Part shown: piece after piece, positions 25,628 to 48,676 of the stretch
Layout of the letters: each line of letters starts with the position of its first letter
Position numbering within the stretch: position 1 is the stretch's first letter
The notes under the pieces: model-generated
Databases searched by the model: none
What the model was told of the DNA's origin: nothing
Seen by the model: only the letters and a program-made list of their open reading frames with translations
Position numbers and translations under genes: made by a program
Source of the DNA: a bacterium
Lineage (GTDB): Bacteria; Patescibacteriota; Minisyncoccia; Phycocordibacterales; UBA9973
DNA: 64,000 nucleotides
Assembly (NCBI GenBank): GCA_037200905.1
Contig: JBBCGN010000001.1
Span: 244,795 to 308,794 of the forward strand
Direction: 5' to 3'

Positions 25628-27049
25628 ATGATTTTAAAAGACGAGATTGATCAAAAATCAAAAGAGCAACAAATAACAACCGCTAACGTGCAGCGGGATT
25701 ATCTTTTTGGTTGGCTGTTAAATTATATTTTCACTCAGAGCGAATTGAAGGACTCACTTTTCCTTAAGGGCGGAAACGCACTGAGAAAAGCCTATTTTAT
25801 AAAAACTCGTTTTTCAACCGATCTGGATTTCGGTACTCCAAACGATATTGACCAAGAATTTTTGAAACAAGAGATTGAAAAAGCGTGTCAGTTCGTAAGC
25901 GAGAAAGCTGGTATCGCTTTTGTCCTTGAAAGGAACGACGTAAGGGAAAAGTTCAATTGGAACGAACCGCGCTGGAAAGTTTTTGAGGTAAAAATTTATT
26001 TTAAAGATTTCTATGGAAACTCTGATCACATCACCCTCAAAATCTCTCTCGATGTAACCAGATTTGATAAAACATATCTTGATATACAGGAACGCACGCT
26101 TCTGCATCCCTACTCAGATGTAGCCGAGGTGGCATGCCAAATAAAATGCATGCAACTGGAAGAAGTTTTGGCGACAAAGTTAAAATGCTTGCTACAACGC
26201 GACCATGCGCCAGACCTTTTTGATTTTATATACAGTATCTATTTGAATACAGACATACCGATCAATAAGGCAGACATTCGAAGAGTTTTCCTTCAGCGAA
26301 CAATTTTTGAACGCAGTCCTCTCGTCGCAAAGAATATTCTTCTCAAATTACCATTCGAATACATGAAGGCGGTATGGCTAAAAACGATTATCTGTACACA
26401 AGATATTCTCTTTGAGTTTGATGATGCCTTTGCAAAATTCACTTCTGAAATTGAGGCCTTGTTTGCGGAGGACACAGAGAATCCGTGGCATGACCGCTTT
26501 TTCTTTGAAGCGGACGTACGAAATAAAATTATGAAGGCCGGAAAGGATCAAACTCTTTTGCGTATCGTTTACCAAGGATCGGAAAGACTTGTTGAACCCT
26601 ATTCTTTGAAGTTTCAAGAGAAGAGTGACGGTGCTACAAAAGAGTACCTGTATGTTTGGAATAGAAACGGTGGAAGTAGTCCCAAGCCTGGAATACGAAT
26701 GTTTGTTCCTGAGAATCTGACATCTATAGAAAATACCGAAGAAAAATATGAGCCTCAGTACGAGATAGAATTATGCCGTGCAGGAGAATACCCTGAAGAC
26801 AGATATCTATACGATGTAAAAAAGAAGCGAGAGAAAGAACATAACAAACTGTATAAAGTAAAAGCGCCTCGACAATCTCGACCGACCAGAACGAGAGTGT
26901 CTTCTTTTGGCCCTACTTACGTTTACAAGTGCGGTAACTGCGGAAAACTATCATATCGCAAAACCATGGACGGAACCTTAAAGCCACACAAAAGCAAGAA
27001 TGGTTATTTGTGTTACGGATATGGAATCTACCAGACCACAAAATTTTAG
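25628..27049 (+). CDS. AbiEii/AbiGii-type nucleotidyltransferase (DUF1814) fused to a WYL-like domain and a C-terminal zinc ribbon
   Basis: VQRDYLFGWLLNYIF..LFLKGGNALRKAYF..RFSTDLDF is the DUF1814 signature. LLRIVYQGSERLVEPYSLKF..EYLYVWN..IRMFVPENLTSIE fits the WYL pattern. YKCGNCGK..HKSKNGYLCYGYG is CxxC..H..C. Confidence 0.75.
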   Translation: MILKDEIDQKSKEQQITTANVQRDYLFGWLLNYIFTQSELKDSLFLKGGNALRKAYFIKTRFSTDLDFGTPNDIDQEFLKQEIEKACQFVSEKAGIAFVLERNDVREKFNWNEPRWKVFEVKIYFKDFYGNSDHITLKISLDVTRFDKTYLDIQERTLLHPYSDVAEVACQIKCMQLEEVLATKLKCLLQRDHAPDLFDFIYSIYLNTDIPINKADIRRVFLQRTIFERSPLVAKNILLKLPFEYMKAVWLKTIICTQDILFEFDDAFAKFTSEIEALFAEDTENPWHDRFFFEADVRNKIMKAGKDQTLLRIVYQGSERLVEPYSLKFQEKSDGATKEYLYVWNRNGGSSPKPGIRMFVPENLTSIENTEEKYEPQYEIELCRAGEYPEDRYLYDVKKKREKEHNKLYKVKAPRQSRPTRTRVSSFGPTYVYKCGNCGKLSYRKTMDGTLKPHKSKNGYLCYGYGIYQTTKF

Positions 27050-27057
27050 ACTCCATT

Positions 27058-27130
27058 CGACCGTTTATAGCTTAACTTCCTTCTTTAAAATTGTGTAGTT
27101 GACTTGTTAGCTATATTGCTCCGTAAATCT
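27058..27130. repeat. Left copy of a ~72-bp direct repeat flanking the ABC/TrmB cassette
   Basis: cgaccgtttatagCTTAACTTCCTTCTTTAAAaTTGTGTAGTTGACTTgttagctatattGCTCCGTAaaTCTC, compared with 30477..30548. The 35-bp core has one mismatch. Confidence 0.85.
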
Positions 27131-27803
27131 CTTTACGCAATTGATTAAATTCCTCGGTAAATTTAATTTCTGGATTTCGTGGTCTTGGAAACGGAACGAT
27201 GAATTCTTTTGTAAAACCCGTCGGATGAAGAACCAATACTCGGTCAGCTAAAAATAGTGCTTCCTCAATATTGTGAGTAACAAAAATGACTGTCTTTTTG
27301 TGCGTGGTCCACACATCCAACAACCACTTCTGCATTTTATCTCTGGTATACGCGTCAAGCGCTCCGTATGGTTCGTCCATAAGAAGAACATCTGTGTTGT
27401 GAGCAAGTGAACGCGCAATAGCAACTCGCTGAACTTGTCCCCCAGATAGCTCGTCAGGGTACGCGTCCGCTTTGTCTTCCAGTTCTGCAAGCTTGAGGTG
27501 TTCATTTACCATTGCACAATTGTCTTTTGTATCACCTTTCAATCCGAAAGCTATATTTTCGGAAACTGTCAGCCATGGGAAGGCGGCATAATTTTGGAAA
27601 ACCATTCCAATGTTTCCAGACAAAGAGACCTCTCCTTGATACGGAATGAAATTCGCAAGAGCATGAAGCAAGCTACTTTTACCACTTCCAGATTTACCGA
27701 CAATCGCTACAAATTCTCCTTTGCTCACTTCGAAGGAAACATTCTCAAGTGCAGAGTGGTTCTTGTAACTTACATTTAGATTTTTGACAGTTATCTGGTT
27801 CAT
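27111..27803 (-). CDS. ABC transporter ATP-binding protein (nitrate/sulfonate/taurine NitT-type)
   Basis: GKSGSGKSSLL (Walker A), LSGGQVQRVAIARSL (signature), VLLMDEPYGALD (Walker B). Confidence 0.85.
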   Translation of the reverse strand: MNQITVKNLNVSYKNHSALENVSFEVSKGEFVAIVGKSGSGKSSLLHALANFIPYQGEVSLSGNIGMVFQNYAAFPWLTVSENIAFGLKGDTKDNCAMVNEHLKLAELEDKADAYPDELSGGQVQRVAIARSLAHNTDVLLMDEPYGALDAYTRDKMQKWLLDVWTTHKKTVIFVTHNIEEALFLADRVLVLHPTGFTKEFIVPFPRPRNPEIKFTEEFNQLRKEIYGAI

Positions 27804-28555
27804 TTTTGTGAAAGAGTTAGCCATGGAAAGATTCGGCGAGTAGCCAACACAAAGAGTTGATCGGTAACAGCGCCGAGCGTCCCTAGAACAACTAATGCCG
27901 CTATCATTTCATCAATCCGGTACGAAAGAGATGATATTGAGATTCGATATCCAATACCGCTTGAGGCTCCTGACAGTTCAGACACGAAGACCATTACAAA
28001 CCCGATTGCGATAGCTGTTCGAATACCGGAAATAATGAAAGGAAGACTTGCAGGAAAAATTACTTCCCGAAACATCTTGAAACGAGACAAAGCAAAAAGT
28101 CTTGCGCTCCACAAGAACGTCTGCGGTATTTGTTGGGCGCCGATATATGCACCAATCCATACTGGGAAAAAGACAGCGAATGCTATGGAAAATATCTTTG
28201 CGCCATCATCAATACCAAACCAAACAATAATGAGTGGGATAATGGCTACAGGAGGCAACGGCCTAAGTATCTGAATGATAGGGTTTATTGCCTTTGCTAT
28301 GGACTTTATACGGCCTGTAACTAAACCGGTACAAATACCGATAACTGAACCGAGAGTCAGCCCGACTACAAGTCTCCAAAGACTGTCTCTGAAATCATAA
28401 AAGACAGTACCGGATATAATCATTTCCCAAAGAGCTATGGCAACTTTTGATGGTGGCGGAAATAAAGCAGGATTAACAAAACCACTACGAGATACTAATT
28501 CCCACAGTATACATACTGAAATAATTGGAAGAATAAACCATAGGAATTTTTTCAT
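27800..28555 (-). CDS. ABC transporter permease (NitT/TauT family)
   Basis: 251 aa, six TM segments, BPD_transp_1-like ..FREVIFPASLPFIISGIRTAIAIGF.. Confidence 0.8.
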   Translation of the reverse strand: MKKFLWFILPIISVCILWELVSRSGFVNPALFPPPSKVAIALWEMIISGTVFYDFRDSLWRLVVGLTLGSVIGICTGLVTGRIKSIAKAINPIIQILRPLPPVAIIPLIIVWFGIDDGAKIFSIAFAVFFPVWIGAYIGAQQIPQTFLWSARLFALSRFKMFREVIFPASLPFIISGIRTAIAIGFVMVFVSELSGASSGIGYRISISSLSYRIDEMIAALVVLGTLGAVTDQLFVLATRRIFPWLTLSQK

Positions 28556-28571
28556 GGGTCATGAGATTGCT

Positions 28572-29591
28572 TTAAATACCAACTGCTCCCGAAGAAATCT
28601 TTTTGAGCGGAGCACTGTAGATAACATCCTGGAAATTTGGAATTACAGTATCTTTAGTTACTTTACCGCTATCTTTAGCCCACTGTGCTTCTCGATTCAA
28701 GTATTCGAGCAATTGAGGAGTAAGAGCGATGCGGAAATCAAAACTACCCCAGATTCCATCGACTGTTTCCTTGTCGAGTTTTGTGTATTTCATCACTACA
28801 GCTTTTGCTTCCTCTGGATTGTTCTTGGTAAACTTTTCTGCTTCAACAAGTCCTTTCAATAGTTTTTCAAGTGTTGCAGGATTTTCTTTAACAGACTCTT
28901 TTGCTTCTATGACATAAAGTTCTGAATAAATACTCGCGTCAGTGAAAGTGATGGATTTATCACCAAGCTGCTTTTCAGCTATGTACGCGAATGGATCAAA
29001 TACTGCAATAGCATCTACACTTCCACTTATTAGAGCAGCCGGCATATCCTTTGGCGCCTGACTCACGATTTCAACTTGGTCTTTGGAAATACCGAGCTTG
29101 TTCAAAAATTCATAGGTAAAGAATTCCGGCCCACCACCAATAGACGTAGCTATCTTTCGCTTCTTTGCTTTGAAGTATTGATCAGAAGTCTCGAGTCCTG
29201 CTTCTTTGCGCGCAACAACTCGTACTTCATTCTGAGTCTTGCCAACTACTTGCGCAGGCACAACAAATTTATTTCCCTGAAGGGAGGCAAGAGTTACTGG
29301 AACATCACCAGAAATTGAAAAATCCAAAGATCCTCCGAGAAATGCTTCGAGGGCAAACTTACCAGCAGTAAATTCCTTGAGCTCAACATTAAGTCCCTCT
29401 TTTTCAAAAAAGCCTTTGTCTTTTGCCACCATGACCAAGGCCATAGCAGGAGAGGTTTGAATTCCCACTGTTACATGTTCCAGTTCTTTGGGCTGCTTTA
29501 ATCTGGCATGCCAAGCAAATAACCCACCTATTAAGGCAAGGATGATAATGGTCCACAAAATATTTTTTGATGTTTTTGACATATACACCAC
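28572..29591 (-). CDS. ABC transporter substrate-binding protein (NMT1/SsuA-like; probable start 29582)
   Basis: N-terminal anchor, then ..VTVGIQTSPAMALVMVAKDKGFFEKEGLNVELKEFTAGKFALEAFLGGSLDF.. Confidence 0.75.
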   Translation of the reverse strand: MVYMSKTSKNILWTIIILALIGGLFAWHARLKQPKELEHVTVGIQTSPAMALVMVAKDKGFFEKEGLNVELKEFTAGKFALEAFLGGSLDFSISGDVPVTLASLQGNKFVVPAQVVGKTQNEVRVVARKEAGLETSDQYFKAKKRKIATSIGGGPEFFTYEFLNKLGISKDQVEIVSQAPKDMPAALISGSVDAIAVFDPFAYIAEKQLGDKSITFTDASIYSELYVIEAKESVKENPATLEKLLKGLVEAEKFTKNNPEEAKAVVMKYTKLDKETVDGIWGSFDFRIALTPQLLEYLNREAQWAKDSGKVTKDTVIPNFQDVIYSAPLKKISSGAVGI

Positions 29592-29670
29592 AATCTACAG
29601 TTTTGGTAAAGTATTGTAAACACTGTTGTACATTATTGACAACATAAACCGACTTTGATAGCATGAGGAT

Positions 29671-30489
29671 ATGATTGAAGACATACTCAAAAAGCTTGAT
29701 TTGCGCGACGAGGAAATAAAGGCCTTCCTTTTCCTTCTGGAGAACGGACCTCAAACGGCTGGCAATCTAGCTAAAAAGACCGGCCTATCCCGCCCTTCCC
29801 TATATGGGTTCATGCGCAAACTCCAAAAAATGGAGCTAGTTATTGAATCTCAGAAAAACGGCATCAAGACTTTCACAGCAAGTTCAAAAGAAAAAGTTTC
29901 TAGCCTTTTCGATGAGAAAATACAAGAACTAGAGCAAGGCAAGCTCTCAATCGAAAAAGTCTACAGCGAAATCCTCAAAACCGGAGCGACTATCAGTCCG
30001 AAGTTTCAATTATTTGAAGGCAAAGATGGAATGAAGCTCGTACTCAAAGACATGCTTATGTATCGAGACATTGAGACGAAATCATATTGGCCTATAAAAG
30101 CCATGATTGAAATTCTCTCTGAAGATTTTTTCAAAACATTAAATAAGGAGCGTATCCAGCGAAAACTTACGACTCGAGCAATCTGGCCCCAGAACCAAGT
30201 CGTGGATATAAAAAAATACCCTTATCTTGGGACTGGAGAGAAATTTCTCCGAGAAATCCGTGTAGCACCGAAAGATATTGGTTTCTCTATGGGTTACTGG
30301 ATATACGGAAATAAAGTTGCTTTTATTTCTTCCAAGAAAGAAGCTTTCGGATTTATTATCGAGAGTAAGGAGCTCGTTGAAATGCTCTCTTCTCAGTTTG
30401 AAGTCATGTGGAAACTTTCACGTCCCATAAAAGCAAAAGAGAGTGATTCCGCAGAATTTTTAAAAGAACTAAAAAACGACCGTTCGTAA
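29671..30489 (+). CDS. TrmB family transcriptional regulator
   Basis: LDLRDEEIKAFLFLLENGPQTAGNLAKKTGLSRPSLYGFMRKLQKMELV is a TrmB-type wHTH. Transcribed divergently from the ABC operon. Confidence 0.75.
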   Translation: MIEDILKKLDLRDEEIKAFLFLLENGPQTAGNLAKKTGLSRPSLYGFMRKLQKMELVIESQKNGIKTFTASSKEKVSSLFDEKIQELEQGKLSIEKVYSEILKTGATISPKFQLFEGKDGMKLVLKDMLMYRDIETKSYWPIKAMIEILSEDFFKTLNKERIQRKLTTRAIWPQNQVVDIKKYPYLGTGEKFLREIRVAPKDIGFSMGYWIYGNKVAFISSKKEAFGFIIESKELVEMLSSQFEVMWKLSRPIKAKESDSAEFLKELKNDRS

Positions 30490-30548
30490 CTTAACTTCCT
30501 TCTTTAAATTTGTGTAGTTGACTTATATCTTATTCTGCTCCGTATCTC
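30477..30548. repeat. Right copy of the ~72-bp direct repeat
   Basis: cgaccgttcgtaaCTTAACTTCCTTCTTTAAAtTTGTGTAGTTGACTTatatcttattctGCTCCGTATCTC. It overlaps the TrmB stop codon and precedes the recombinase gene. Confidence 0.85.
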
Positions 30549-30592
30549 GTTATTCACTAGACTTCGCACGTTGTTCCGGTATGTTCGTGTGT

Positions 30593-31924
30593 ATGGAACA
30601 AATAGCACCATATGGAGCTCAAATAGGCATACCTCCAGTATTGCAGACAGAGCCAGTCAGATACTGTTTATATGCCCGTAAATCGAGCGAGGCAGAAGAA
30701 AAGCAAGCACTCTCAATTGATTCTCAAGTAAAGGAGATGCTCGATATCGCTCAAAAAGATAATCTGAACGTTACCGATATGTACCGCGAATCTCACTCGG
30801 CAAAAGATTGCGGACAGAGACCAGTTTTCAATAAATTACTTCTTGATATCCGTGAGGGTAAATTCGATGGCGTCCTCGTTTGGCATCCAGACCGCCTCTC
30901 TCGAAACGCTGGTGACCTCGGCGCTATAGTCGATTTGCTTGACCAGAAAAAATTGATTGAGATACGGACATATAGCCAGCGCTTTACCAATAATCCAAAT
31001 GAGAAATTCCTTTTGATGATTCTCGGATCACAAGCAAAACTCGAAAATGACAACAAGAGCATCAATGTGAAGCGTGGATTACGAACTCGAGTTGAAAGTG
31101 GTCTATGGCCCAGCGTTGCTCCTACCGGATATCTTAATCACCCTGATCGAACAATGAAATGCCATGTGATTGTTGATCCATTACGATCGCATGTAATACG
31201 ACTCATTTTTGAGAAAGCGGCCTATGAGAAAATGAGTATCCGAAAACTATTCCGCTGGCTCAAAGAGGACGTCCGATTTACTACGAGACATGGAAAACCA
31301 CTCAGTCTAAGCAATATCCAGCTCATTCTTCGTAATAATTTCTATATGGGACTGATCGAATATCCACGAGGGTCAAGCAAGTGGTACCCTGGCAAACACG
31401 AACGCATAATTAGTGAAGAACTTTTCAAAAAGGTTCAGGAAAAATTGGATGCAAGTAAAAATGGTGAACAACGCACTAAAAAAGAGTTCGCGTTTACCCG
31501 TCTTATGAAATGCGGTATGTGTAAATCCGGAGTGACTGCTGAAGAAAAGTTCAAGAACTTAATTGATGGAAGTGTTGCAAAGTACATTTATTATGGCTGT
31601 ACAAGGTTCAATGATAAAAATTGCAAGAATACTTACCTACGCGAAGATAATCTAATTGAGCAATTGCTCGAGATTGTAGATCGAATTGATATCAATAACG
31701 TAGGCATCAAAAGTAAACTTGAAAAAGAAATCGAACGTTTTGGAGAATTTAGAAGCAAGGTTTTGGGAACCACTGAACAAGAGAAAATCGTACAGACAAA
31801 AATTGATGTACGAAACTATATGAAATACCTACTCCGAGAAGGAACGATTCAAGAAAAGCGAGATTTGATGCAGTCGTTCACGAGTAAGCTCATTTTGATC
31901 AACAAAAGAGTTGTGCTCGAGTAA
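30593..31924 (+). CDS. Large serine recombinase (resolvase domain, recombinase domain, zinc ribbon)
   Basis: YCLYARKSSEAEEKQALSIDSQ (catalytic Ser region), VWHPDRLSRNAGD, ..CGMCKSGVTAEE..YYGCTRFNDKNCKN. Start taken as MEQIAPYG; an alternative start is 30581. Confidence 0.85.
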   Translation: MEQIAPYGAQIGIPPVLQTEPVRYCLYARKSSEAEEKQALSIDSQVKEMLDIAQKDNLNVTDMYRESHSAKDCGQRPVFNKLLLDIREGKFDGVLVWHPDRLSRNAGDLGAIVDLLDQKKLIEIRTYSQRFTNNPNEKFLLMILGSQAKLENDNKSINVKRGLRTRVESGLWPSVAPTGYLNHPDRTMKCHVIVDPLRSHVIRLIFEKAAYEKMSIRKLFRWLKEDVRFTTRHGKPLSLSNIQLILRNNFYMGLIEYPRGSSKWYPGKHERIISEELFKKVQEKLDASKNGEQRTKKEFAFTRLMKCGMCKSGVTAEEKFKNLIDGSVAKYIYYGCTRFNDKNCKNTYLREDNLIEQLLEIVDRIDINNVGIKSKLEKEIERFGEFRSKVLGTTEQEKIVQTKIDVRNYMKYLLREGTIQEKRDLMQSFTSKLILINKRVVLE

Positions 31925-31928
31925 AAAA

Positions 31929-32768
31929 CTATTCTGATTTTACTTCTCCAGATTCAAGCTTAGTAACGATTTCATTCATAGTGTAATGCACAAATTGTTT
32001 TCCAAGCTCAGTTAATTCATATTGTTTATCATCATCAAAAGCAGAGGTAGCATAGCGCACACTACCCGCAGGCTTCGATGTTTTTTTGCTGGGACGTATT
32101 ATTACATTTCCTTGATAATCCCTTTCTTTATGCTGTCTTATTACATGCCCTGTACTTAAATCATGTACGAGTAACTTAAATAAATCTGCTTCGGCCGAAT
32201 CTTCTCGAACAGCTTCACCGTGTATTTGATCCCAAATTTCTTGCCTTGTATAACCTGGATTATTAAATACAACTCTTACAACAGCAAAGTGAGCTTCTGA
32301 ATATATGTCAATCCATGAGACAAACATGCGAACTACATCATCTGAGCAAATTTTAGTAGAAGCCGAATTTGCAAGTAAATTTCTTATCAACTTTCTCTTC
32401 TCTTCGCTTTCTGCCGCAGACCAATCTCGGAAACACTTTTTCACAATCTTTAAATACTCAGGACTTTGCAACCTTTCTCTAATTTTTTCATCGGTTTGAT
32501 CTACACGTGCCATAACTTCCATGATAGTTATGGCAATCTCTTTTATTTCATCCTCTTGTAGTTTAAGCCATGTACCAAATATGTTATTCAAATTTTCTTG
32601 CTCTTTTTCAGACCATGATCCTCCTATGCCACCAATGGCTCCCCCAATAACCGGAATAGCACTTAAACAAGCAAGTGCAAAGCGAGCAGCTTTTGGTCCT
32701 GAACCTGATTCTAAAGCTTCATCAAGTTGTTTTCTTAAGTCACTTTTTTCTTCTTTGTCATCTTTCAT
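31929..32768 (-). CDS. Hypothetical protein with an N-terminal glycine-zipper hydrophobic segment
   Basis: ..AARFALACLSAIPVIGGAIGGIGGSW.. followed by a helical region. It lies 16 nt downstream of the HEPN-like gene on the same strand. Confidence 0.4.
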   Translation of the reverse strand: MKDDKEEKSDLRKQLDEALESGSGPKAARFALACLSAIPVIGGAIGGIGGSWSEKEQENLNNIFGTWLKLQEDEIKEIAITIMEVMARVDQTDEKIRERLQSPEYLKIVKKCFRDWSAAESEEKRKLIRNLLANSASTKICSDDVVRMFVSWIDIYSEAHFAVVRVVFNNPGYTRQEIWDQIHGEAVREDSAEADLFKLLVHDLSTGHVIRQHKERDYQGNVIIRPSKKTSKPAGSVRYATSAFDDDKQYELTELGKQFVHYTMNEIVTKLESGEVKSE

Positions 32769-32784
32769 ATTAATTTACTTTAAA

Positions 32785-33576
32785 CTACTTAGAGCTTTTA
32801 TCTGCTAATTTAGCAAGTAAACTTACGAAAGCAATGAACTCTAGAGCCATTTCTGGATCATCTTTTATAATTTTATGTGCACGAGGATTTCTTAAGCCAG
32901 CGACTGCACCCGAGAACATCATCATGAATCCTTTTTGCTCATCAATATCTGAAGTATCTGCAAGAGTATTAAATTTCAATACAGGACTCTTGGAACTAAA
33001 TACAAACTCCATAAGTGCTATTCCGTCTTTATCATCAATCCCACTATTCATTCTCACAAGAGCATTTAATGCTTTAACTGCATCTTCAATCGCGTTGGAA
33101 TAATGCCCATCTTTAAAAAGATTTCCAACTGCTCTTTCAATTGCAGGATGAAGCTCAAGACCCTCATATGCTTTAAGTGTTTTCCCAGATGAAGTTTGCC
33201 CAGCATCCCCAAGTTCTTCTAAAAAGATTGCTTTTATACCCTCAAGTTGTTGCCTAGATTCTGTTACTGATTCACTGACGCTTTGTTTAATTTCTCCAAG
33301 AGTTATATCTGGCCACCAACTACCTGGATTAAGGCTAGTAACACCATGGCGGTATCTTTCATACTCAACCGTATTAGTTCCAAAAATAGAAGCCAGAGTA
33401 GCCTCAAGGGTTTTTTCTAATGTAAGAACTGTGGGATCGCCATATTTAGTGATCGAATTTATATCTAGATTTTCTAGATCTTTGATTCTTCTGTCGATCT
33501 TAGGAATAGCTGCTTGCATCTGTTGAAATGACAAATTAGCTTCTACAGGTTCTGATTTCTTAGGTTTTTGGGACAT
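32785..33576 (-). CDS. TIGR02391 (Hypoth_Ymh)-like protein with an Rx4H HEPN-type motif
   Basis: ELHPAIERAVGNLFKDGHYSNAIEDAVKALNALVR..GFMMMFSGAVAGLRNPRAHK.. The N-terminal ~130 aa look like coiled coil. Confidence 0.65.
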   Translation of the reverse strand: MSQKPKKSEPVEANLSFQQMQAAIPKIDRRIKDLENLDINSITKYGDPTVLTLEKTLEATLASIFGTNTVEYERYRHGVTSLNPGSWWPDITLGEIKQSVSESVTESRQQLEGIKAIFLEELGDAGQTSSGKTLKAYEGLELHPAIERAVGNLFKDGHYSNAIEDAVKALNALVRMNSGIDDKDGIALMEFVFSSKSPVLKFNTLADTSDIDEQKGFMMMFSGAVAGLRNPRAHKIIKDDPEMALEFIAFVSLLAKLADKSSK

Positions 33577-33652
33577 ATATAAATTATACTCTTAATCTTA
33601 ATTTTTAAACGAACAGACCACTTTAGGTCACTGGGTACGAAAAACTAAACTG

Positions 33653-33723
33653 CTGGGAGACTAGGACTCGAACCTAGATAAACAGGACCAGAACCTGTTG
33701 TCCTACCATTAGACGATCTCCCA
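33653..33723 (-). tRNA. tRNA-Gln (anticodon CTG)
   Basis: TGGGAGA TC GTCT AATGGTA GGAC A ACAGG TTCTGGT CCTGT TTAT CTAGG TTCGAGT CCTAG TCTCCCA G. Cloverleaf drawn by hand. No encoded CCA. Confidence 0.85.
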
Positions 33724-33726
33724 ATG

Positions 33727-33963
33727 CTACATCTTCGATCTTAACTCCTTCTTTCCTTTTGCAGTCTTGTAGTACCTTTCTTTACGGAATGCCTCATATT
33801 TATCATCATACGGTTCGAAATATAAAATCTCAAATGGAACACGAGATTTGGTAGATTTTACTTTGCCCGAATTGTGATAATTCAAACGATTTTCTAAAGA
33901 TTCAGTACAACCAATATATTGGTTATCGTCCTTTTTGCTTTTTAAGACATACACGTAATGCAT
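33727..33963 (-). CDS. Small GIY-YIG nuclease family protein
   Basis: MHYVYVLKSKKDDNQYIGCTESLENRLNYHNSGK..R.PFEILYFE..KYEAFRKERYYK. Its stop codon is 3 nt from tRNA-Gln position 1. Confidence 0.8.
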   Translation of the reverse strand: MHYVYVLKSKKDDNQYIGCTESLENRLNYHNSGKVKSTKSRVPFEILYFEPYDDKYEAFRKERYYKTAKGKKELRSKM

Positions 33964-33964
33964 A

Positions 33965-34032
33965 CTGTTGTCCTACATTAGCCTCGCCCGTAGGCTGGAG
34001 CCTTCGGGCTACGGCCGAGGGACGATCTCCCA
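33965..34032 (-). pseudogene. Decayed copy of the tRNA-Gln 5' half, interrupted by a 39-nt GC-rich hairpin
   Basis: Minus strand reads TGGGAGATCGTC[CCTCGGCCGTAGCCCGAAGGCTCCAGCCTACGGGCGAGG]CTAATGTAGGACAACAG, against the intact TGGGAGATCGTCTAATGGTAGGACAACAGG. Confidence 0.8.
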
Positions 34033-38309: not shown

Positions 38310-39197
38310 CTACAAGCCTTTCTCGGCCTCGATGAACATATCCAGGTCCCCGTCCAGGACTTCTTTGACATTGGCCGTTTCTACGCCCGTACGGAGATCT
38401 TTCACTAATTTATAGGGATGCAGGACATAGTTCCTGATCTGGTTTCCCCATTCGATGTCAGTTCCTTTGCCTCCCTGCATGCTCTCGACGAGGGATTTGT
38501 GCTCGTCCTCGGATTTCTTATAGAGCTTGCCGCGCAGGAGCTCGAGCGCGCGCTCCCGGTTCTGCTCCTGGCTGCGCTCTTCCCTGACATGGACGGTTAT
38601 GCCGGTCGGCGTATGCGTGGCCCGTACGGCGGTCTCGCGCTTGTTCACGTTCTGGCCGCCCGGGCCGCCGGACTTGGCGAAGTCTATCTCGACATCAGCC
38701 TCGCGGAGCTCGGGCATGGCCGCCTTCGGGATTTTCGGTATGACTTCCACCAGGGCGAAGCTAGTGCTGCGCTTGGCTTTCGAGTTGAACGGACTGGTAC
38801 GCACCAGGCGATGCACGCCGGACTCGTGCTTGAGGGTGCCATAAGCATTCTTGCCGGAGACTTCGAACATGATATTCTTGATGCCGTTGTGCTCGTTCCA
38901 ATGGTCATGGACCAGAGCGGCGGAAAAATTCTTCGAGGAAAAATATTTGCCGTACATGTCGTAGAGCATGCGGGCGAAATCTTCGGCGTCGTCCCCTCCC
39001 GCCCCGGAGATGATGCTCATGATGGCGTCTCCGCGGTCAAAAGCTGCGAGACCTTCTTTTTTTGCCTTCAGATCTGCGAGCGTACGAAGCGAAGCCTGAG
39101 CCTTGTCCTTGTCGCTCCAGAAATCCGACGCTTGCATGGCCGCTTCGAGAGCGGCAATCTGCTTGTCTATTTCGCTTTCATCTCGAGATTCGTTCAT
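38310..39197 (-). CDS. prfB: Peptide chain release factor 2 (short form, single frame)
   Basis: The SPF tripeptide (RTSPFNS) and SGGPGGQNVNKRETAVR (GGQ) are present. 295 aa. Confidence 0.9.
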   Translation of the reverse strand: MNESRDESEIDKQIAALEAAMQASDFWSDKDKAQASLRTLADLKAKKEGLAAFDRGDAIMSIISGAGGDDAEDFARMLYDMYGKYFSSKNFSAALVHDHWNEHNGIKNIMFEVSGKNAYGTLKHESGVHRLVRTSPFNSKAKRSTSFALVEVIPKIPKAAMPELREADVEIDFAKSGGPGGQNVNKRETAVRATHTPTGITVHVREERSQEQNRERALELLRGKLYKKSEDEHKSLVESMQGGKGTDIEWGNQIRNYVLHPYKLVKDLRTGVETANVKEVLDGDLDMFIEAEKGL

Positions 39198-45782: not shown

Positions 45783-45801
45783 ATTTTTCCTCTAACGAGG
45801 G

Positions 45802-45874
45802 TGTCGGCGACAGGGATCGAACCTGTGACCTGAGGCTTATGAGTCCTCCGCTCTACCGACTGAGCTACGCCGAC
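45802..45874 (-). tRNA. tRNA with CAT anticodon (Met type)
   Basis: GTCGGCG TA GCTC AGTCGGTA GAGC G GAGGA CTCATAA GCCTC AGGTC ACAGG TTCGATC CCTGT CGCCGAC A. One A/G mismatch at the base of the anticodon stem. Confidence 0.8.
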
Positions 45875-46080
45875 ATGAAGCAAACTGCTTTGCTTCATGT
45901 CGAGGACGATACCGCGAGGTGAAGCATAAGGACGATGCGAGGCTGAAGGCCGAGCCGTCCTTTCAAGCAACTTATCTAAAACGAGCAAACTGCTTTGCTT
46001 CATGTCCGATGGCGATACCACCGAGTATAGCAAGAGGGCGATGCGAGGCGGTAGCCGAGCAGCCCTTTCAAGCAATTTAC
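45875..46080. repeat. Two tandem ~100-105-nt units, each starting (plus strand) with an 8-10-bp hairpin
   Basis: Unit A is 45875-45976 and unit B is 45983-46080. Shared blocks are gcaaactgctttgcttcatgtc, cgatacc, gcgatgcgaggc, gccgagc and cctttcaagcaa. Confidence 0.8.
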
Positions 46081-46129
46081 TACTTACTACTTCGGCGTGA
46101 GAGACACTGGCATGTCACTTGCCGACTTG

Positions 46130-46200
46130 TTGCGGGGTCCGGAATTGAACCGGAGTCTCAAGGTTATGAGCCTTGCGAGATACCTCTTCTCTACCCCGCT
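46130..46200 (-). tRNA. tRNA with CAT anticodon (Met or Ile2 type; A1/A72 mismatch)
   Basis: AGCGGGG TA GAGA AGAGGTA TCTC G CAAGG CTCATAA CCTTG AGAC TCCGG TTCAATT CCGGA CCCCGCA A. Confidence 0.7.
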
Positions 46201-46233
46201 ATATATTTAATCATAACAAGGAGATTTCGGTAT

Positions 46234-46295
46234 GGCTCATAACCTTGGTTATTCGCGCTTATCGTCCTTTCGGAGATACCTTTCTCTACCTCGCT
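46234..46295 (-). pseudogene. Decayed copy of the CAT-tRNA 5' half with an insertion and an inverted anticodon hairpin
   Basis: AGCGAGGTAGAGAAAGGTATCTC[CGAAAGGACGATAAGCGCGAATAAC]CAAGGTTATGAGCC. The loop TTATGAG is the exact complement of CTCATAA. Confidence 0.65.
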
Positions 46296-46337
46296 ATAAA
46301 GCGTTCAAAATAGATTTTTACGCTTTGCCTATTCTAC

Positions 46338-46935
46338 TCATATTTGGCAGAAAAGCAAGCCAAATGAGGCTATATATACCCGAAAATCCCTGAAAATGTC
46401 CTCGTACAGGGCCGTCACCCGCTTGGCCTCGTGAGCGGAGAGATGGAACTGCGGTGCCCTCGTGGGCGACGCGGTTGCGCACCGCATGGGCCTCCCAGGC
46501 GGCGGTCAGATGCGGAAAGGTCTCGCGGTCGGCTTCCCTTGAGCTTGTCGCCGAGCGTTTCGCCCTTGAAGCCCATCTGATGAAGCAGATCTTCGAGCAT
46601 GGAATCAGCCTCGATAATGGCGATCTTCCAGTCCGCGGGCGTCGGAGAAAAGACATGGTCGAGGACCTGGTTCCAGCGGGGATTTTTCGAGCGTGCGCCC
46701 CTCTTGGTCTTCTTGGCCTCCTCGGCGTGGTGGTGGGCATACTCGGCGAGCTCATGCTGCAGAAATTTTTTCTCCTTCGCCCGATCTCAAAGATCCTGAC
46801 CACGGAATACGAGATCAGGAACAGGAAAAAGATGGCGAAAAATGGAAAATACGTCGCGAGGATATTCCCAAGCACCACGAAGTGCGGAAAAGCGATATGC
46901 GGCAGGGCGATGTGAGGGAGGGTGAAAGAAGGCAT
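46338..46935 (-). pseudogene. Membrane-anchored hypothetical protein with a C-terminal Rx4H (DUF4145/HEPN-like) motif (frame breaks; 3' end uncertain)
   Basis: MPSFTLPHIALPHIAFPHFVVLGNILATYFPFFAIFFLFLISY.., ..MLEDLLHQMGFKGETLGDKLK.., ..FPHLTAAWEAHAVRNRVAHEG.. Confidence 0.4.
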
Positions 46936-46974
46936 ATGGATATGATGACCCCTAGATTATAGCACGCCCTCCGG

Positions 46975-48405
46975 CTAGCGGATCGCTTCGAATTTCTTGC
47001 CGGCCTCGAAACAAGGCATCCTCGTCCCAGTGCGAGGCCATGAACTGGATGGAAAGCGGCAGACCCTCGTCGGTCTTGCCGGAAGGGCACCGCGAGCGAC
47101 GGCACGCCCGGGAGAGGTTTGCCGGCGCGGAGAAAATGTCGGAGAGATACATGGAAACAGGATCGTTCACCTTTTCTCCGATCTTGAATGCCGGGGTCGG
47201 CGTGGTAGGAGTGGCGATCAGGGAGACGCCTTCAAAGGCCTTCTTGAGCTCGGCGCGGATCCTTTCGCGCACCTGCACGGCCTTGTTGTATAGGCATCAT
47301 AGTATCCGTGCGAAAGCACGTACGTGCCGAGACAGTATGCGCCTGCGGGCTTCCTTGCCGAAGCCCTTTCCCCCTGCTCTTCTTGTAGACTTCCATCAGG
47401 TTCGCGCTTTCGCGGTCGGTGTAGCCGTAGCGGATGCCGTCGAAGCGGGACAGGTTGGTGGAAACTTCCGCCGGCATGATGATGTAATACGCCGCGAGGG
47501 AATATCTGCACTCTGGAAGCTCGACGTCGACGATCTCATAACCCGCATTTTTGAGCTTTTCGACAGACTGTTTGAAATTTTCCATGACGACGGGATCCAC
47601 GCCATCGGTAAAGAGGTGCCACGGCACGCCGATCTTTTTCATATTCTTCGCATCTCCTTTTTTGACGCGCTTATCCTCTGGGACAGAAGTAACTGTCGTG
47701 CTCGTCATATTTTGAGAGCGCTTTGAAAATTATTTCCGTATCATTCACGGTTTTCCCCGAAGGGCGATACCTGGTCGAGAGAGTTTCCCATGGGGATGAT
47801 GCCCTGGCGTGAAAGGGCGCCGTAGGTGGGCTTGAGCCGACCAGGCCGCAGAAAGACGATGGTTCGCGCACCGAGCCGCAGGTCTCCGTTACCGAGAGCC
47901 ACGAGGGCCATGTCGGCCGCCACGGCGATGGCCGAGCCGCCCGAAGATCCGCCGGGTACGCGGGAAGTATCATGCGGATTGCGAGAAACGCCATAGGCGC
48001 TGTTTTCCGTCGAGGAACCCATGGCGAACTCGTCCATGTTCGTACGGCCCAAAAATACCGCTCCCGGCCGCTTTCAATTCCCTGGATGACCGTGGCATCA
48101 TAGCTGGCAGATAGTTTTCCAAGATTTTTGACGCTGCGGAAGCGATGCGTCCTTCGATCAGGATATTATCCTTATAGCGAACGGTATGCCAGTGAGAAGC
48201 GTGGCCGAGCCGTCGGAAAATTTCTGCTGCGCTACTTCAGCTTGTGCCAGCACGTCGCCATAGACTTCGAGGTAGGCATGGAGCTCGGTATTTTTCTCTG
48301 CAATAACCCCAAGATATGCTTCCGCTAATTCTTTGCAGAGTGCAATCGCCCGCCTTGAGCGCTGCATGAGCTTTTTTCGATTGTCAGATGTTCCAGATCG
48401 ATCAT
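46975..48405 (-). pseudogene. gatA: Glu/Asp-tRNA amidotransferase subunit A (five or more frame breaks)
   Basis: [36 protein letters not shown] in ORF 47741..48052. N-terminal, middle and C-terminal pieces lie in ORFs 48158, 47232 and 46952. The reconstructed end is ..DALFEAGKKFEAIR. Confidence 0.8.
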
Positions 48406-48676
48406 AGTATCTTTTTTACTTTCAGGAAACCGTCTTGCGAATCCGGAAACTGCCTGACGATAAGCTCCTTGGAAAATGGGAACGGCGCGCTCGCGTCTTC
48501 GCGCCAGGCATTATAAAGCTCGGGAGTAAACAGCCGAGCTGTCCGCTTCCGCTTTTTCGATGATCTTCACGTATGCGATGACGCCGCCCAAGATCGGCGA
48601 GCATCTCTCTCTTCTCTTCTGCCGACAGATCGAGCCGGGCCAGTTCCATTAAATTTTCTACAGCTTTGATATCCAT
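48402..48676 (-). pseudogene. gatC: Glu/Asp-tRNA amidotransferase subunit C (frame breaks)
   Basis: MDIKAVENLMELARLDLSAEEKREMLADLG, then in other frames ..VIAYVKIIEKAEAD.. and ..FPDSQDGFLKVKKIL. The stop overlaps the gatA ATG (ATGA). Confidence 0.7.

Follow-up and report, generated by a model that had tools for sequence, protein, structure and literature searches.

A conserved partial copy of the initiator tRNA, with a hairpin antisense to its anticodon arm, precedes the initiator tRNA gene in CPR bacteria: a candidate leader element

T-box leaders are 5′ leaders that contain sequence pairing to a tRNA anticodon and in which alternative pairings decide the outcome. They lie upstream of aminoacyl-tRNA synthetase or amino-acid genes, display a 3-nt codon within their specifier loop, detect the 3′ end of uncharged tRNA and switch a terminator. 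In archaeal and eukaryotic pre-tRNAs, sequence between the 5′ exon and the anticodon loop can pair with that loop in an anticodon-intron helix within a tRNA-like cloverleaf. At attachment sites of integrative elements, part of a tRNA gene is found as a direct repeat of the intact gene; there the 3′ part is duplicated, the copies flank a mobile element and an integrase gene is adjacent. The non-tRNA part of a tRNA precursor can itself have a base-pairing function, as in leuZ-type spacer RNAs; the known regulatory RNAs from tRNA spacers have small RNAs, rather than the tRNA, as pairing partners and are not tRNA copies. The tRNA cluster of phage T4 combines free-standing GIY-YIG-type endonuclease genes with local duplications, and a role for the endonuclease SegB in segmental duplication is reported to have been shown there by experiment (PMC2330249, PMC13096335).

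Here we describe a locus that shares features with all of these systems. It lies on the minus strand of a 64,000-nt stretch of contig JBBCGN010000001.1 (GenBank assembly GCA_037200905.1; hereafter the window). The window is part of a CPR/Patescibacteria chromosome: chromosomal CPR genes, including those for CTP synthase, SecD, FtsW, GatA and a release factor, are found across it, and its minus strand holds every tRNA. ORFs of GIY-YIG, HNH and LAGLIDADG-like types are placed between the tRNAs of the cluster. We considered and rejected a phage or prophage origin of this cluster, since BLAST searches against phage records matched the tRNAs alone, at 77–85% identity, and the window genes are chromosomal.

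The intact tRNA at 46129–46200 has the anticodon CAT. ARAGORN reports it as tRNA-Met (CAT), and Rfam RF00005 matches 46130–46200 with 60 bits against a family gathering threshold of 29. The original prediction had called its identity unclear, between elongator Met and Ile2, on the grounds of an A1/A72 mismatch and the lack of GGG/CCC in the anticodon stem. Both observations are correct: A1 lies opposite A72, and within the stem CAAGG/CCTTG only two G:C pairs (G30:C40 and G31:C39) adjoin the anticodon loop, where initiators are expected to have three (29–31:39–41). The absence of a Watson-Crick pair at 1:72 is an initiator feature, whose canonical form is C1xA72 and which appears with A1 or C1 in the initiator tRNAs of relatives. 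The D-stem GAGA/TCTC gives A11:U24, also an initiator feature, and the acceptor ends are GCGGGG/CCCCGCAAC, the latter forming the 3′ end. Most of this CPR group has the two-G:C anticodon stem, Saccharibacteria-type relatives have two or three such pairs, and an unbroken series of CPR sequences links the window tRNA to canonical CGCGGGGTGGAGCAG...CCCCCGCAACCA initiators. Judged by these signatures, the tRNA is of initiator type, with putative formylation and use in initiation, and not ambiguous between elongator Met and Ile2. In a comparison with E. coli for tRNA identity, three genomes matched at 77%, each with the match annotated as plain tRNA-Met, which was uninformative.

Upstream of the whole unit we read a putative promoter, TTGCTT (46358–46353) and TAGAAT (46336–46331) with a 16-nt gap (together 46331–46358), which a consensus promoter scan of the window did not list. 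Relatives have an equivalent TTGnnn-17-TAnAAT ahead of the half-copy or, if that is missing, ahead of the tRNA. A leader hairpin, AAGCGT...ACGCTT followed by TAT (46299–46326), comes next, in the same position as a hairpin and U-run that precede the tRNA in relatives without the element. The pseudo-5′-half follows at 46295–46273 (AGCGAGGTAGAGAAAGGTATCTC) and aligns with tRNA positions 1–24, that is, the 5′ acceptor strand and the D-arm, with the substitution G5>A and one D-loop G missing. The alignment (z = 10–12 against shuffled flanks) continues locally into CGAAAGG, compared with GCAAGG in the 5′ strand of the tRNA anticodon stem. This diverged copy of positions 25–31 and a linker, ACGATAAGC (family consensus GACTAATAGC), form a block at 46257–46272 whose positions carry 0.2–1.7 bits each, where the spacer background is 0.13. 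The upstream copy represents positions 1–31 alone, and no complete cloverleaf was found for it, with no Rfam tRNA match at 46201–46295 even at E ≤ 10.

The core hairpin occupies 46234–46256 and consists of the 5′ arm GCGAATAACC (46256–46247), a loop AA and the 3′ arm GGTTATGAGCC (46244–46234). The 3′ arm, which contains GGUUAUGAG, is antisense to tRNA positions 30–40, and the complementarity covers positions 30–42 when the loop AA is included. In total, 46247–46234 (CAAGGTTATGAGCC) is the exact reverse complement of GGCTCATAACCTTG at 46172–46159, 14 bases that correspond to tRNA positions 30–43. Two matches occur in the window against 0.04 expected, a number reached in none of 100 shuffles. 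The 5′ arm is the anticodon-loop sequence with UC changed to GA, and the local hairpin actually formed is ATAACC (46252–46247) with GGTTAT (46244–46239). These alignments bear out the original prediction on the upstream half-copy, on a 25-nt insertion (CGAAAGGACGATAAGCGCGAATAAC, 46272–46248) and on a 7-nt TTATGAG that is the exact reverse complement of the anticodon loop CTCATAA. They do not extend to a complete inverted anticodon hairpin, as TTATGAG-CC is followed by ATACC and not by CCTTG; the structure is better described as a two-piece hairpin with an altered sense arm (UC to GA) and an exact antisense arm. An AUG lies inside the antisense arm, 21–27 nt downstream of an SD-like AAAGGA; the peptide would have 9–15 codons and is not conserved.

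Between the hairpin and the tRNA lies an AT-rich spacer (46201–46233) that is unalignable between species except for its last two bases, AT, which alone are conserved. A trailer hairpin, GGCAAGTGACATGCC (46109–46123), stands directly 3′ of the tRNA and is seen after 28 of the 90 initiator tRNA 3′ ends in the fetched loci. RNAalifold returned no structure longer than the core hairpin; candidate outer stems can be drawn in three loci (L038, L041 and L057) and are lineage-specific. No repeat family that includes the spacer or the block was found in the rest of the window or in two related loci (L001 and L002), and no distant copies of the 5′ half mark a large inserted element.

This anatomy sets the element apart from the described systems. 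Like a T-box leader it places anticodon-pairing sequence in a 5′ leader, but it lies in front of a tRNA gene and derives from a copy of the same tRNA, has 8–14 nt of antisense sequence and contains no terminator or antiterminator. No T-box matched at the element in Rfam (gathering threshold and E ≤ 10), the gene downstream is a tRNA, and the element does not qualify as a T-box. We also rejected an attachment-site remnant, because here the 5′ part is duplicated, 72 nt separate the half-copy from the intact tRNA, no integrase gene was found within 10 kb on the relevant side of the initiator tRNA locus, and the intervening block is conserved across classes. Downstream of the elongator tRNA-Met in L001 and L002 there are 3′ fragments that are closer to the classical attachment-site kind. 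With the anticodon-intron helix of archaeal and eukaryotic pre-tRNAs the element shares its predicted fold, but splicing is neither needed nor implied, a second, complete 5′ half would lie within the “intron”, a bulge-helix-bulge is absent, and the organism is a bacterium.

An intron origin would make the pseudo-half an old 5′ exon and the antisense arm the former guide for both exon ends of an anticodon-loop intron, the downstream tRNA having been restored by recombination with a spliced copy. The copy does break at the junction of anticodon stem and loop, the antisense arm extends to either side of the anticodon, as expected of an internal guide sequence or an anticodon-intron helix, a GIY-YIG ORF lies between a pseudo-half and its tRNA at the tRNA-Gln locus of the window, and group I introns exist in cyanobacterial initiator tRNA genes. 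We nonetheless regard such a relic as very improbable, given that Rfam gives no group I intron signal (Intron_gpI) even at E ≤ 10, that the pairing is entirely Watson-Crick with no U·G wobble at a splice site, that the pseudo-half is without loop positions 32–36, that a complete tRNA and not a 3′ exon alone lies downstream, and that no intact intron turned up at any CPR locus.

The element stands upstream of the initiator tRNA in about 40 CPR species genomes (Saccharibacteria, Nomurabacteria, Paceibacterota and Minisyncoccia); L015, L016, L022 and L032 are among the carriers from Saccharibacteria. Their common layout is a copy of the genome’s own tRNA positions 1–24, a block C(G)AAAGGACTAATAGC, the hairpin GCGAATAACC-loop-GGTTATGA(GCC), an unalignable spacer of 33–48 nt and the intact tRNA. 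We defined a family by these five parts, with a covariance model (R1) and with the hairpin given as GCGAAUAACC-loop-GGUUAUGA; the window belongs to the family, and its layout is identical in 36 other complete units. R1 scores 53.6 bits at 46232–46275, and 29–65 bits in the CPR elements, in each case over the full model length. The exact core pattern has 75 matches in species-representative genomes (596 Gb), against about 100 expected by chance by our own arithmetic. Around 40 of the 75 are in CPR genomes, essentially all of them with the full layout; the non-CPR matches have the pattern alone and no other part of the layout, with partial R1 scores of at most 30 bits and a single outlier at 38.8 bits (L056). 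One Patescibacteria match, between tuf and rpsJ (L029), was tried as an intron-bearing locus and set aside as chance or unrelated, as it has no tRNA and nothing in Rfam. In Rfam (gathering threshold and E ≤ 10), neither the half-copy nor the hairpin nor the repeats that lie between the two Met tRNAs matched a family, and a literature search found no description of the element.

In lineages reached without using the element as a query, it was present in four of 14. Among these lineages it is either well preserved (the window, L002, L011 and ten contigs, L088–L097) or absent, and graded decay of the hairpin block was not seen. It sometimes occurs in tandem, and it is polymorphic in presence between near-identical strains (L001 and L002); in relatives that do not have it, the same upstream flank directly abuts the tRNA. 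Since half of the lineages are without the element, it is dispensable. The gap between the hairpin half-sites varies from 1 to 6 nt, and in variants with an altered sense arm (ATAAC- in L088–L097, GTAACC in L051) the antisense arm is kept. In Saccharibacteria-type and CAGG-stem lineages the antisense match declines to 8–10 nt. The original description of a stranded, broken piece does not fit an element that is conserved across many CPR genomes and is no leftover peculiar to this one. An assembly artefact, or heterogeneity from an invertible segment at the hairpin, might be suspected from several frameshifts in the genes adjoining the locus (46370–48420), which could signal poor local sequence quality; it is effectively refuted by the same architecture in dozens of independent assemblies from different projects, short-read metagenome assemblies among them, and nothing indicates that the hairpin is invertible.

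Partial copies are not confined to the initiator tRNA. At tRNA-Asp, the pseudo-5′-part (45782–45740) comprises positions 1–17, a 15-nt D-loop insert, GAGCACCCGCC and a short loop that replaces the anticodon loop; Asp pseudo-halves are also present in L025 and L032. At tRNA-Gln, the pseudo-5′-half (34032–33965) comprises positions 1–12, a 39-nt GC-rich hairpin (34020–33982) and positions 13–30, and is followed by a GIY-YIG ORF (33963–33727) and then by the intact tRNA-Gln; L011 is built likewise, its GC hairpin being 14 nt long. The replacement of the D-arm by stable GC hairpins in some Met and Gln pseudo-halves suggests that what is retained is an acceptor strand plus any hairpin. As originally predicted, three of the six tRNAs in the window (Met-CAT, Asp and Gln) carry upstream half-copies broken at the anticodon arm, and all three stop where the 5′ strand of the anticodon stem ends. 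Related genomes have 5′ pseudo-halves upstream of Asp, Gln and Thr tRNAs, and these cases, with the very strong conservation of the initiator element in relatives (about 40 CPR species genomes, and four of 14 independently reached lineages), agree with the original view that the mechanism is recurrent and not due to chance. The neighbouring elongator tRNA-Met has its own conserved and covarying leader, a 14-bp hairpin that includes the first four tRNA bases, which indicates that leaders competing with tRNA folding recur in this clade.

The main rival to a leader function is that the element is a neutral relic of duplication. Tandem duplications over the 5′ boundary of tRNA genes would be frequent, perhaps after breaks by homing endonucleases, and short-tract gene conversion would keep the copy similar without any function. 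In 458 kb of CPR loci, partial tRNA copies are 5′ pieces upstream and 3′ pieces downstream and of no other kind, as expected from boundary-spanning tandem duplication, and recent cases show duplicated upstream flank or whole tandem units (L032, L060, L038 and L041). The homing-endonuclease-like ORFs between the cluster tRNAs point the same way, as do the polymorphism between L001 and L002, the decay seen in some half-copies and, in phage T4, the segmental amplification that the tRNA-cluster endonuclease SegB is reported to drive (PMC13096335; see also PMC2330249). In the CPR cluster, however, endonucleases are only a candidate source of the duplication, and they leave the conservation of the hairpin block unexplained.

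Several comparisons bear on this rival. Positions outside the search pattern are conserved (ATAGC, 1.2–1.7 bits; GCC, 0.7–1.0 bits) beside a spacer at background (about 0.1–0.4 bits), and by this comparison the hairpin block is under purifying selection. The core is invariant by ascertainment and therefore gives no covariation signal, and the outer hairpin pairs are broken in about a third of copies. The block is not tRNA-like over ATAGCGCGA, so that gene conversion could not maintain it, yet it is conserved across CPR classes next to a randomised spacer, and it is found intact or absent. Direct repeats of 24 nt that lie about 100 nt apart should also soon be deleted; their persistence, together with the co-divergence of the block flanks with the tRNA 3′ half (Mantel r = 0.53, p = 0.0005), speaks for selective retention. 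Pseudo-halves have a mean identity of 0.90 to their own tRNA and 0.715 to the tRNAs of other species, and a perfect match of 24–27 nt to the own tRNA is present in 22 of 41 complete units despite species differences in the tRNA 5′ halves. Gene conversion or selection keeps the pseudo-half similar to the resident tRNA, and the element is probably old and vertically inherited. Differences between pseudo-half and tRNA are mostly G>A (the window, L019, L062, L076, L025 and L027) and would weaken, not preserve, pairing with the 3′ acceptor strand. On balance, we consider a purely neutral relic rather unlikely.

A site acting at the DNA level would be another use for a retained copy: the palindrome ATAACC-n-GGTTAT and the duplicated piece could serve a homing endonuclease or recombinase directed at the universally conserved anticodon region of the initiator tRNA gene, whether for recognition, for immunity or as a decoy. 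The cluster is rich in homing-endonuclease genes, conserved tRNA sequence is a typical homing target, and presence/absence polymorphism and tandem copies would be in keeping with such a site. The 1–6 nt variation of the gap, however, is easier to reconcile with a single-strand hairpin than with a dimeric DNA site, none of the endonuclease genes consistently co-occurs with the element, the hairpin pattern had 0 matches in the viral contigs scanned, and element divergence tracks vertical descent. We give this explanation a slim chance.

The reading that we favour, while placing it somewhat below an even chance, is that 46201–46295 is the local copy of an old, vertically inherited cis-acting leader of the CPR initiator-tRNA transcription unit, which acts as an anti-tRNA trap. 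Such a leader would have originated by partial tandem duplication spanning the 5′ boundary of the tRNA gene, with the copied anticodon-arm region remodelled into a hairpin of a sense arm carrying UC to GA and an exact antisense arm. The upstream promoter would transcribe the element within the tRNA precursor. The antisense arm would first be sequestered in its own weak hairpin and would then form a duplex of 8–14 bp with the real tRNA, covering its anticodon loop and the 3′ side of its anticodon stem, while the pseudo-acceptor strand would pair with the 3′ acceptor strand of the tRNA. The outcome would be an alternative, intron-like cloverleaf unusable as a tRNA, and the balance between trap and productive fold would gate or time the release of mature initiator tRNA. 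Co-transcription of the element with the tRNA, and any processing, are inferred. The AT-rich spacer could also be the site of a second promoter, and much of the tRNA would then be made without the leader.

Predicted folds are consistent with this trapping role for the leader. Of 37 precursors, 28 have a minimum-energy fold in which the antisense arm is paired to the real anticodon region, and in the three folds inspected (the window, L040 and L085) the upstream acceptor strand is also predicted to pair with the tRNA 3′ strand. An enforced antisense duplex beats an enforced local hairpin in 29 of the 37 precursors, by a mean of 3.6 kcal/mol, although nearest-neighbour folding underestimates real tRNA stability and the alternative fold may never be populated.

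The same complementarity might instead act in trans, if an RNase P-released leader persisted and bound the anticodon loop of free initiator tRNA, or some other target, as a sponge or regulator. The conservation evidence applies equally to this possibility, the arm holds the whole 7-nt complement of the anticodon loop, and regulatory RNAs derived from tRNA spacers exist in E. coli, for example the leuZ 3′ external transcribed spacer. We judge a trans-acting RNA improbable, as the element’s own stem takes up four of the seven complementary bases and there is no evident terminator or stabilising 3′ structure.

A broader form of the cis-acting leader, which we find possible but doubtful, is an anti-tRNA riboregulator within the CPR initiator-tRNA precursor. 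The precursor would adopt an inactive cloverleaf like that of an intron-containing pre-tRNA, and resolution of the trap would set the supply of mature initiator tRNA post-transcriptionally, and hence translation initiation and growth; the Asp, Gln and Thr pseudo-halves and the elongator Met leader would follow the same principle.

The R1 covariance model marks initiator tRNA loci in CPR genomes, and the element accounts for “pseudo-tRNA fragments” that annotation pipelines would flag as debris or misassembly. More broadly, these tRNA clusters emerge as meeting places of homing endonucleases, duplications and structured leaders. Even if neutral, the element would still show clearly how a 24-nt repeat can evolve in concert over long times. 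Translation initiation is limited by how much initiator tRNA is present, and CPR are very small, slow-growing and host-dependent bacteria. If the leader reading is true, these organisms would have a new form of control, in which a tRNA is regulated from inside its own precursor by a conserved, self-derived element complementary to its anticodon loop.

Rfam agrees with our reading that all six tRNA genes of the window lie on the minus strand. Upstream of the intact tRNA-CAT (AGCGGGGTAGAGAAGAGGTATCTCGCAAGGCTCATAACCTTG..., 46200-46129, minus strand, also recognized by Rfam), we read from the sequence, in order and on the same strand, a promoter-like TTGCTT-16-TAGAAT (46358-46331), a small leader hairpin (46326-46299), a pseudo-half AGCGAGGTAGAGAAAGGTATCTC copying the 5' part of the tRNA (46295-46273), CGAAAGG followed by ACGATAAGC, a hairpin GCGAATAACC-AA-GGTTATGAGCC (46256-46234) and an AT-rich spacer of 33 nt. 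The pseudo-half differs from tRNA positions 1-24 by G5>A and one missing G, and the likeness to the tRNA continues to the end of the anticodon stem's 5' strand (z = 10-12 relative to shuffled flanks). Also upstream of the tRNA is CAAGGTTATGAGCC, which reverse-complements tRNA positions 30-43 exactly; two matches of this type occur in the window, where 0.04 are expected. The original prediction is accurate except in one point: the upstream piece does not amount to a complete inverted anticodon hairpin. Locally, ATAACC can form a stem with GGTTAT.

The tRNA has an A/A mismatch at 1:72, A11:U24, the anticodon CAT and acceptor ends GCGGGG...CCCCGCAAC. Such features are marks of bacterial initiator tRNAs. 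Two of the three canonical closing G:C pairs are present in its anticodon stem. Because an unbroken series of homologues in CPR bacteria (Patescibacteria) leads from this tRNA to canonical initiators such as CGCGGGGTGGAGCAGCCTGGTCAGCTCGCGTGGCTCATAACCACGAGG...CCCCCGCAACCA, we read it as an initiator, rather than as the elongator Met or Ile2 tRNA between which its identity had been left ambiguous. The other CAT tRNA nearby (45799-45875) looks like the elongator.

The source of the window is a CPR bacterium. Its genes are chromosomal (CTP synthase, a release factor, an FtsX/FtsE-like pair, SecD, FtsW, GatA and an M48 peptidase); the CTP synthase shares 80-89% identity with Paceibacterota, Nomurabacteria and Patescibacteria MAG proteins, and an identical one is encoded on contig JBBCBH010010871.1 of GCA_037975565.1. 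A phage origin was rejected, as phage records match the tRNAs alone and the genes are those of CPR chromosomes. At 46370-48420 (minus strand), GatA and a conserved membrane-protein gene immediately upstream of the tRNA cluster are each broken up over several frames, unlike CTP synthase and other window genes, which are intact; relatives encode an intact GatA of 474 residues and an intact membrane protein of about 200-226 residues. Either local pseudogenization or assembly indel errors could account for this. The release-factor gene (38310-39197, minus strand; 295 residues, PCRF and RF-1 domains) starts right after tRNA-Thr(CGT), and its PCRF domain is missing the usual N-terminal part; its relatives have 294-314 residues. 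It may be a short CPR form or involve programmed frameshifting. A low-GC island (about 26000-34000; 37-41% versus about 54% elsewhere) adjoins tRNA-Gln and is probably an integrated mobile element, with genes for a large serine recombinase, an AbiEii-type nucleotidyltransferase, a TrmB-like regulator, an NMT1-type ABC transporter and a Hypoth_Ymh protein. It is absent at the corresponding position in two relatives' loci, L001 and L002.

These two relatives, with 89% CTP synthase identity to the window, differ from each other at the element site. In L001, a terminator-like hairpin and TTTTTTTAT are followed directly by the tRNA, and L002 has a 105-nt insert, homologous to the window element, exactly at this hairpin-TTTTTTTAT/tRNA junction. 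A metagenome scan using a tRNA-derived pattern independent of the element gave nine loci: L011 carries the same element as the window, in L007 and L008 the D-arm of a pseudo-half contains a GC-rich hairpin and the antisense hairpin is missing, L006 has a short pseudo-half, and the remaining loci have none. Species-representative genomes (596 Gb) were scanned for GCGAATAACC-N(1-6)-GGTTATGA, yielding 75 matches; by our arithmetic, about 100 would be expected by chance in 596 Gb. The non-CPR matches look like chance. About 40 of the 75 are from CPR (Saccharibacteria, Nomurabacteria, Paceibacterota, Minisyncoccia and 'Patescibacteria group'), and essentially all of these share one layout: a copy of positions 1-24 of their own initiator tRNA, C(G)AAAGGACTAATAGC, the hairpin, GCC(T), an AT-rich spacer of 33-48 nt and the intact initiator tRNA. 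Four genomes (L038, L041, L051, L060) carry tandem double units. The recurrence across about 40 CPR genomes upholds the earlier argument against chance; we consider an assembly artefact very unlikely.

A covariance model of the block (the hairpin region plus linker) scored the CPR elements at 29-65 bits over their full length and the chance pattern matches at no more than 30 bits and only partially, apart from one outlier (L056, 38.8 bits); it had no match in loci scored as element-free. Three further lineages were reached via the protein encoded upstream. In one, the element is present in 10 of 10 contigs with a variant sense arm, GCGAATAAC-TTA-GGTTATGAGCC, outside the reach of the genome-scan pattern; another has the tRNA inverted and adjoining an HTH/LAGLIDADG-like ORF; the third has no element and a -10 box 5 nt from the tRNA +1. 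Among 14 lineages not chosen via the element, four have the full element, three other pseudo-halves and seven none. Judged from these sequences, the element is conserved and not local debris.

Conservation is also seen outside the searched pattern, in ATAGC (1.2-1.7 bits), GAC with an A-rich run (0.4-0.9) and GCC (0.7-1.0), while the adjacent spacer is at background except for the final two bases, AT, before the tRNA. Pairwise divergence of the block flanks follows that of the tRNA 3' half, which lies outside the repeat (Mantel r = 0.53, p = 0.0005), a sign of long vertical co-descent and not of recent spread. Pseudo-halves have a mean identity of 0.90 to their own tRNA versus 0.715 to those of other species, and are identical to their own tRNA over 24-27 nt in 22 of 41 complete units; in decaying copies positions 4-17 are lost first and the block-adjacent part remains. 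A purely neutral account, in which pseudo-halves have no function, explains their origin and mutual likeness but leaves the conservation of the non-tRNA block unexplained, and we consider it unlikely. Repeats of 24 nt in direct orientation, 100 nt apart, should be easily deleted, and L001 and L002 show that such loss happens; as the block is nevertheless widespread and well preserved, it appears to be kept by selection. We are fairly confident that the element is both conserved and selected.

Aligned to the tRNA, the sense arm (5' hairpin strand) GCGAAUAACC corresponds to G31-C40 of the anticodon-loop region, except that GA replaces U33C34, and the antisense arm (3' strand) is the unmodified antisense of the anticodon region. 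CGAAAGG corresponds to the anticodon stem's 5' strand, and CUAAUAG resembles a degenerate CUCAUAA. The simplest origin that we infer would be partial tandem duplication to about position 40, then fold-back copying at the palindromic anticodon arm. The partial tRNA copies in 458 kb of CPR loci are always 5' pieces when upstream (Met, Asp, Thr, Gln) and 3' pieces when downstream, as tandem duplications across a gene boundary would produce. Small endonuclease genes abound in the cluster: GIY-YIG ORFs occur in the window (33727-33963) and before elongator tRNA-Met in L008, L011 and L089-L091, and tRNA clusters contain an HNH gene in L078 and a LAGLIDADG-like ORF in L098. Breaks made by cluster endonucleases are a plausible source of the duplications; SegB, the tRNA-cluster endonuclease of phage T4, is reported to bring about segmental amplification (PMC13096335, PMC2330249). 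That the element is itself a DNA target or decoy for an endonuclease was ranked below the neutral account.

Other tRNAs also have structured surroundings. Two tandem copies of an element of ~105 nt, with no match in Rfam, lie directly upstream of elongator tRNA-Met (45876-46090, minus strand); it is also found in L009, L038 (two copies), L072, L082, L088, L092 and L094. Its outer stem covaries (GGGC/GCCC, GGAC/GTCC, GTGACA/TGTCAC, GCGACG/CGTCGC), and it terminates at the 3' side in a perfect 14-bp hairpin, CGACAUGAAGCAAA-GCAG-UUUGCUUCAUGUCG, which extends over tRNA bases 1-4 and has compensatory changes in relatives. L088-L097 represent one species with an identical upstream protein, and have between the initiator and elongator Met tRNAs, depending on the strain, either the ~105-nt element or a ~340-nt GIY-YIG cassette; the cassette also occurs in L008 and L011 and is preceded by a GC-rich conserved hairpin, GCCCTGAGCTTGCCGAAGGGC. 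A pseudo-5'-half containing a GC-rich hairpin precedes tRNA-Gln in the window (33727-34032, minus strand) and L011 (1000-1240), with promoter-like TTGAAAAAAGnCCGGTTTTC upstream of both. In the window, a 78-residue GIY-YIG ORF before the tRNA-Gln gene ends 3 nt short of it; in L011, a copy of tRNA-Gln positions 10-72 lies 11 nt downstream.

Directly 3' of the initiator tRNA lies the hairpin GGCAAGTGACATGCC (46109-46123, minus strand). Of 90 initiator tRNA 3' ends in the CPR loci retrieved, 28 are followed by this hairpin, and GTAATCGTGGGTGACAG is a second common variant. A 19-22-nt copy of the elongator tRNA-Met 3' end, GATCCCTGTCGCCGACACC, lies 93 nt downstream in L001 (3264-3376) and L002 (520-632), with the classical appearance of an integrase attachment-site remnant; in L015, L032, L044, L069, L072 and L073, comparable 3' fragments lie after Asp, Thr and Met tRNAs. 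The initiator tRNA is inverted relative to the conserved upstream gene in two lineages, adjoining an ORF that combines an HTH domain with a LAGLIDADG-like motif in one (L098-L106; seen in L098) and a small regulator-like ORF in the other (L004/L005; seen in L004). One relative (L107-L115) has a -10 box, TAAAAT, 5 nt before the initiator tRNA +1, so that this tRNA may be transcribed with almost no leader. The initiators of many CPR start with A1, not C1, which would suit transcription initiation at +1.

The element is most likely part of the tRNA precursor, since the pseudo-half is preceded by a promoter-like motif both in the window and in relatives, and the same upstream flank adjoins the tRNA in relatives without the element. 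Its hairpin comprises six Watson-Crick pairs, tandem G.A/A.G and at most two more pairs, with a single-stranded tail, GAGCC(U), complementary to tRNA positions 29-34. When 37 complete precursors were folded computationally, the antisense arm formed 8-14 bp with the anticodon loop and 3' stem strand of the tRNA itself in the minimum-energy fold of 28, and an enforced antisense duplex was more stable than the local hairpin plus normal cloverleaf in 29 (mean 3.6 kcal/mol). The three structures inspected keep the T-arm as it is, loop out the real 5' half and pair the tRNA 3' acceptor strand with the one upstream. This alternative fold resembles an intron-containing pre-tRNA with an anticodon-intron helix, and as modelled cannot be a working tRNA; we ranked descent from an anticodon-loop intron lower.

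The element could therefore act in cis as a folding trap or switch that gates release of the mature initiator tRNA, a possibility we put forward tentatively, at somewhat less than even chances. It fits the two mismatches and single-stranded tail of the local hairpin, variants that change the sense arm and spare the antisense arm, and the unrelated, stable GC hairpins that stand in for the pseudo-D-arm in L022, L062, L007 and L008 and in the tRNA-Gln pseudo-halves of the window and L011. Several points speak against it: the core is invariant and so gives no covariation, some lineages have an antisense match of just 8-10 nt, the pseudo-acceptor strand is weakened by G>A changes, the element is missing from half of the lineages, and energy models are unreliable for tRNAs. 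A leader fragment acting in trans was ranked lower.

No Rfam family matches the element, and full-text literature searches gave no description of it. T-box leaders and intron-containing pre-tRNAs are similar in possible action, but the element does not have the defining features of either. We class it as a tRNA-derived leader predicted to pair with the tRNA, and it could count as more than this if the mechanism were confirmed.
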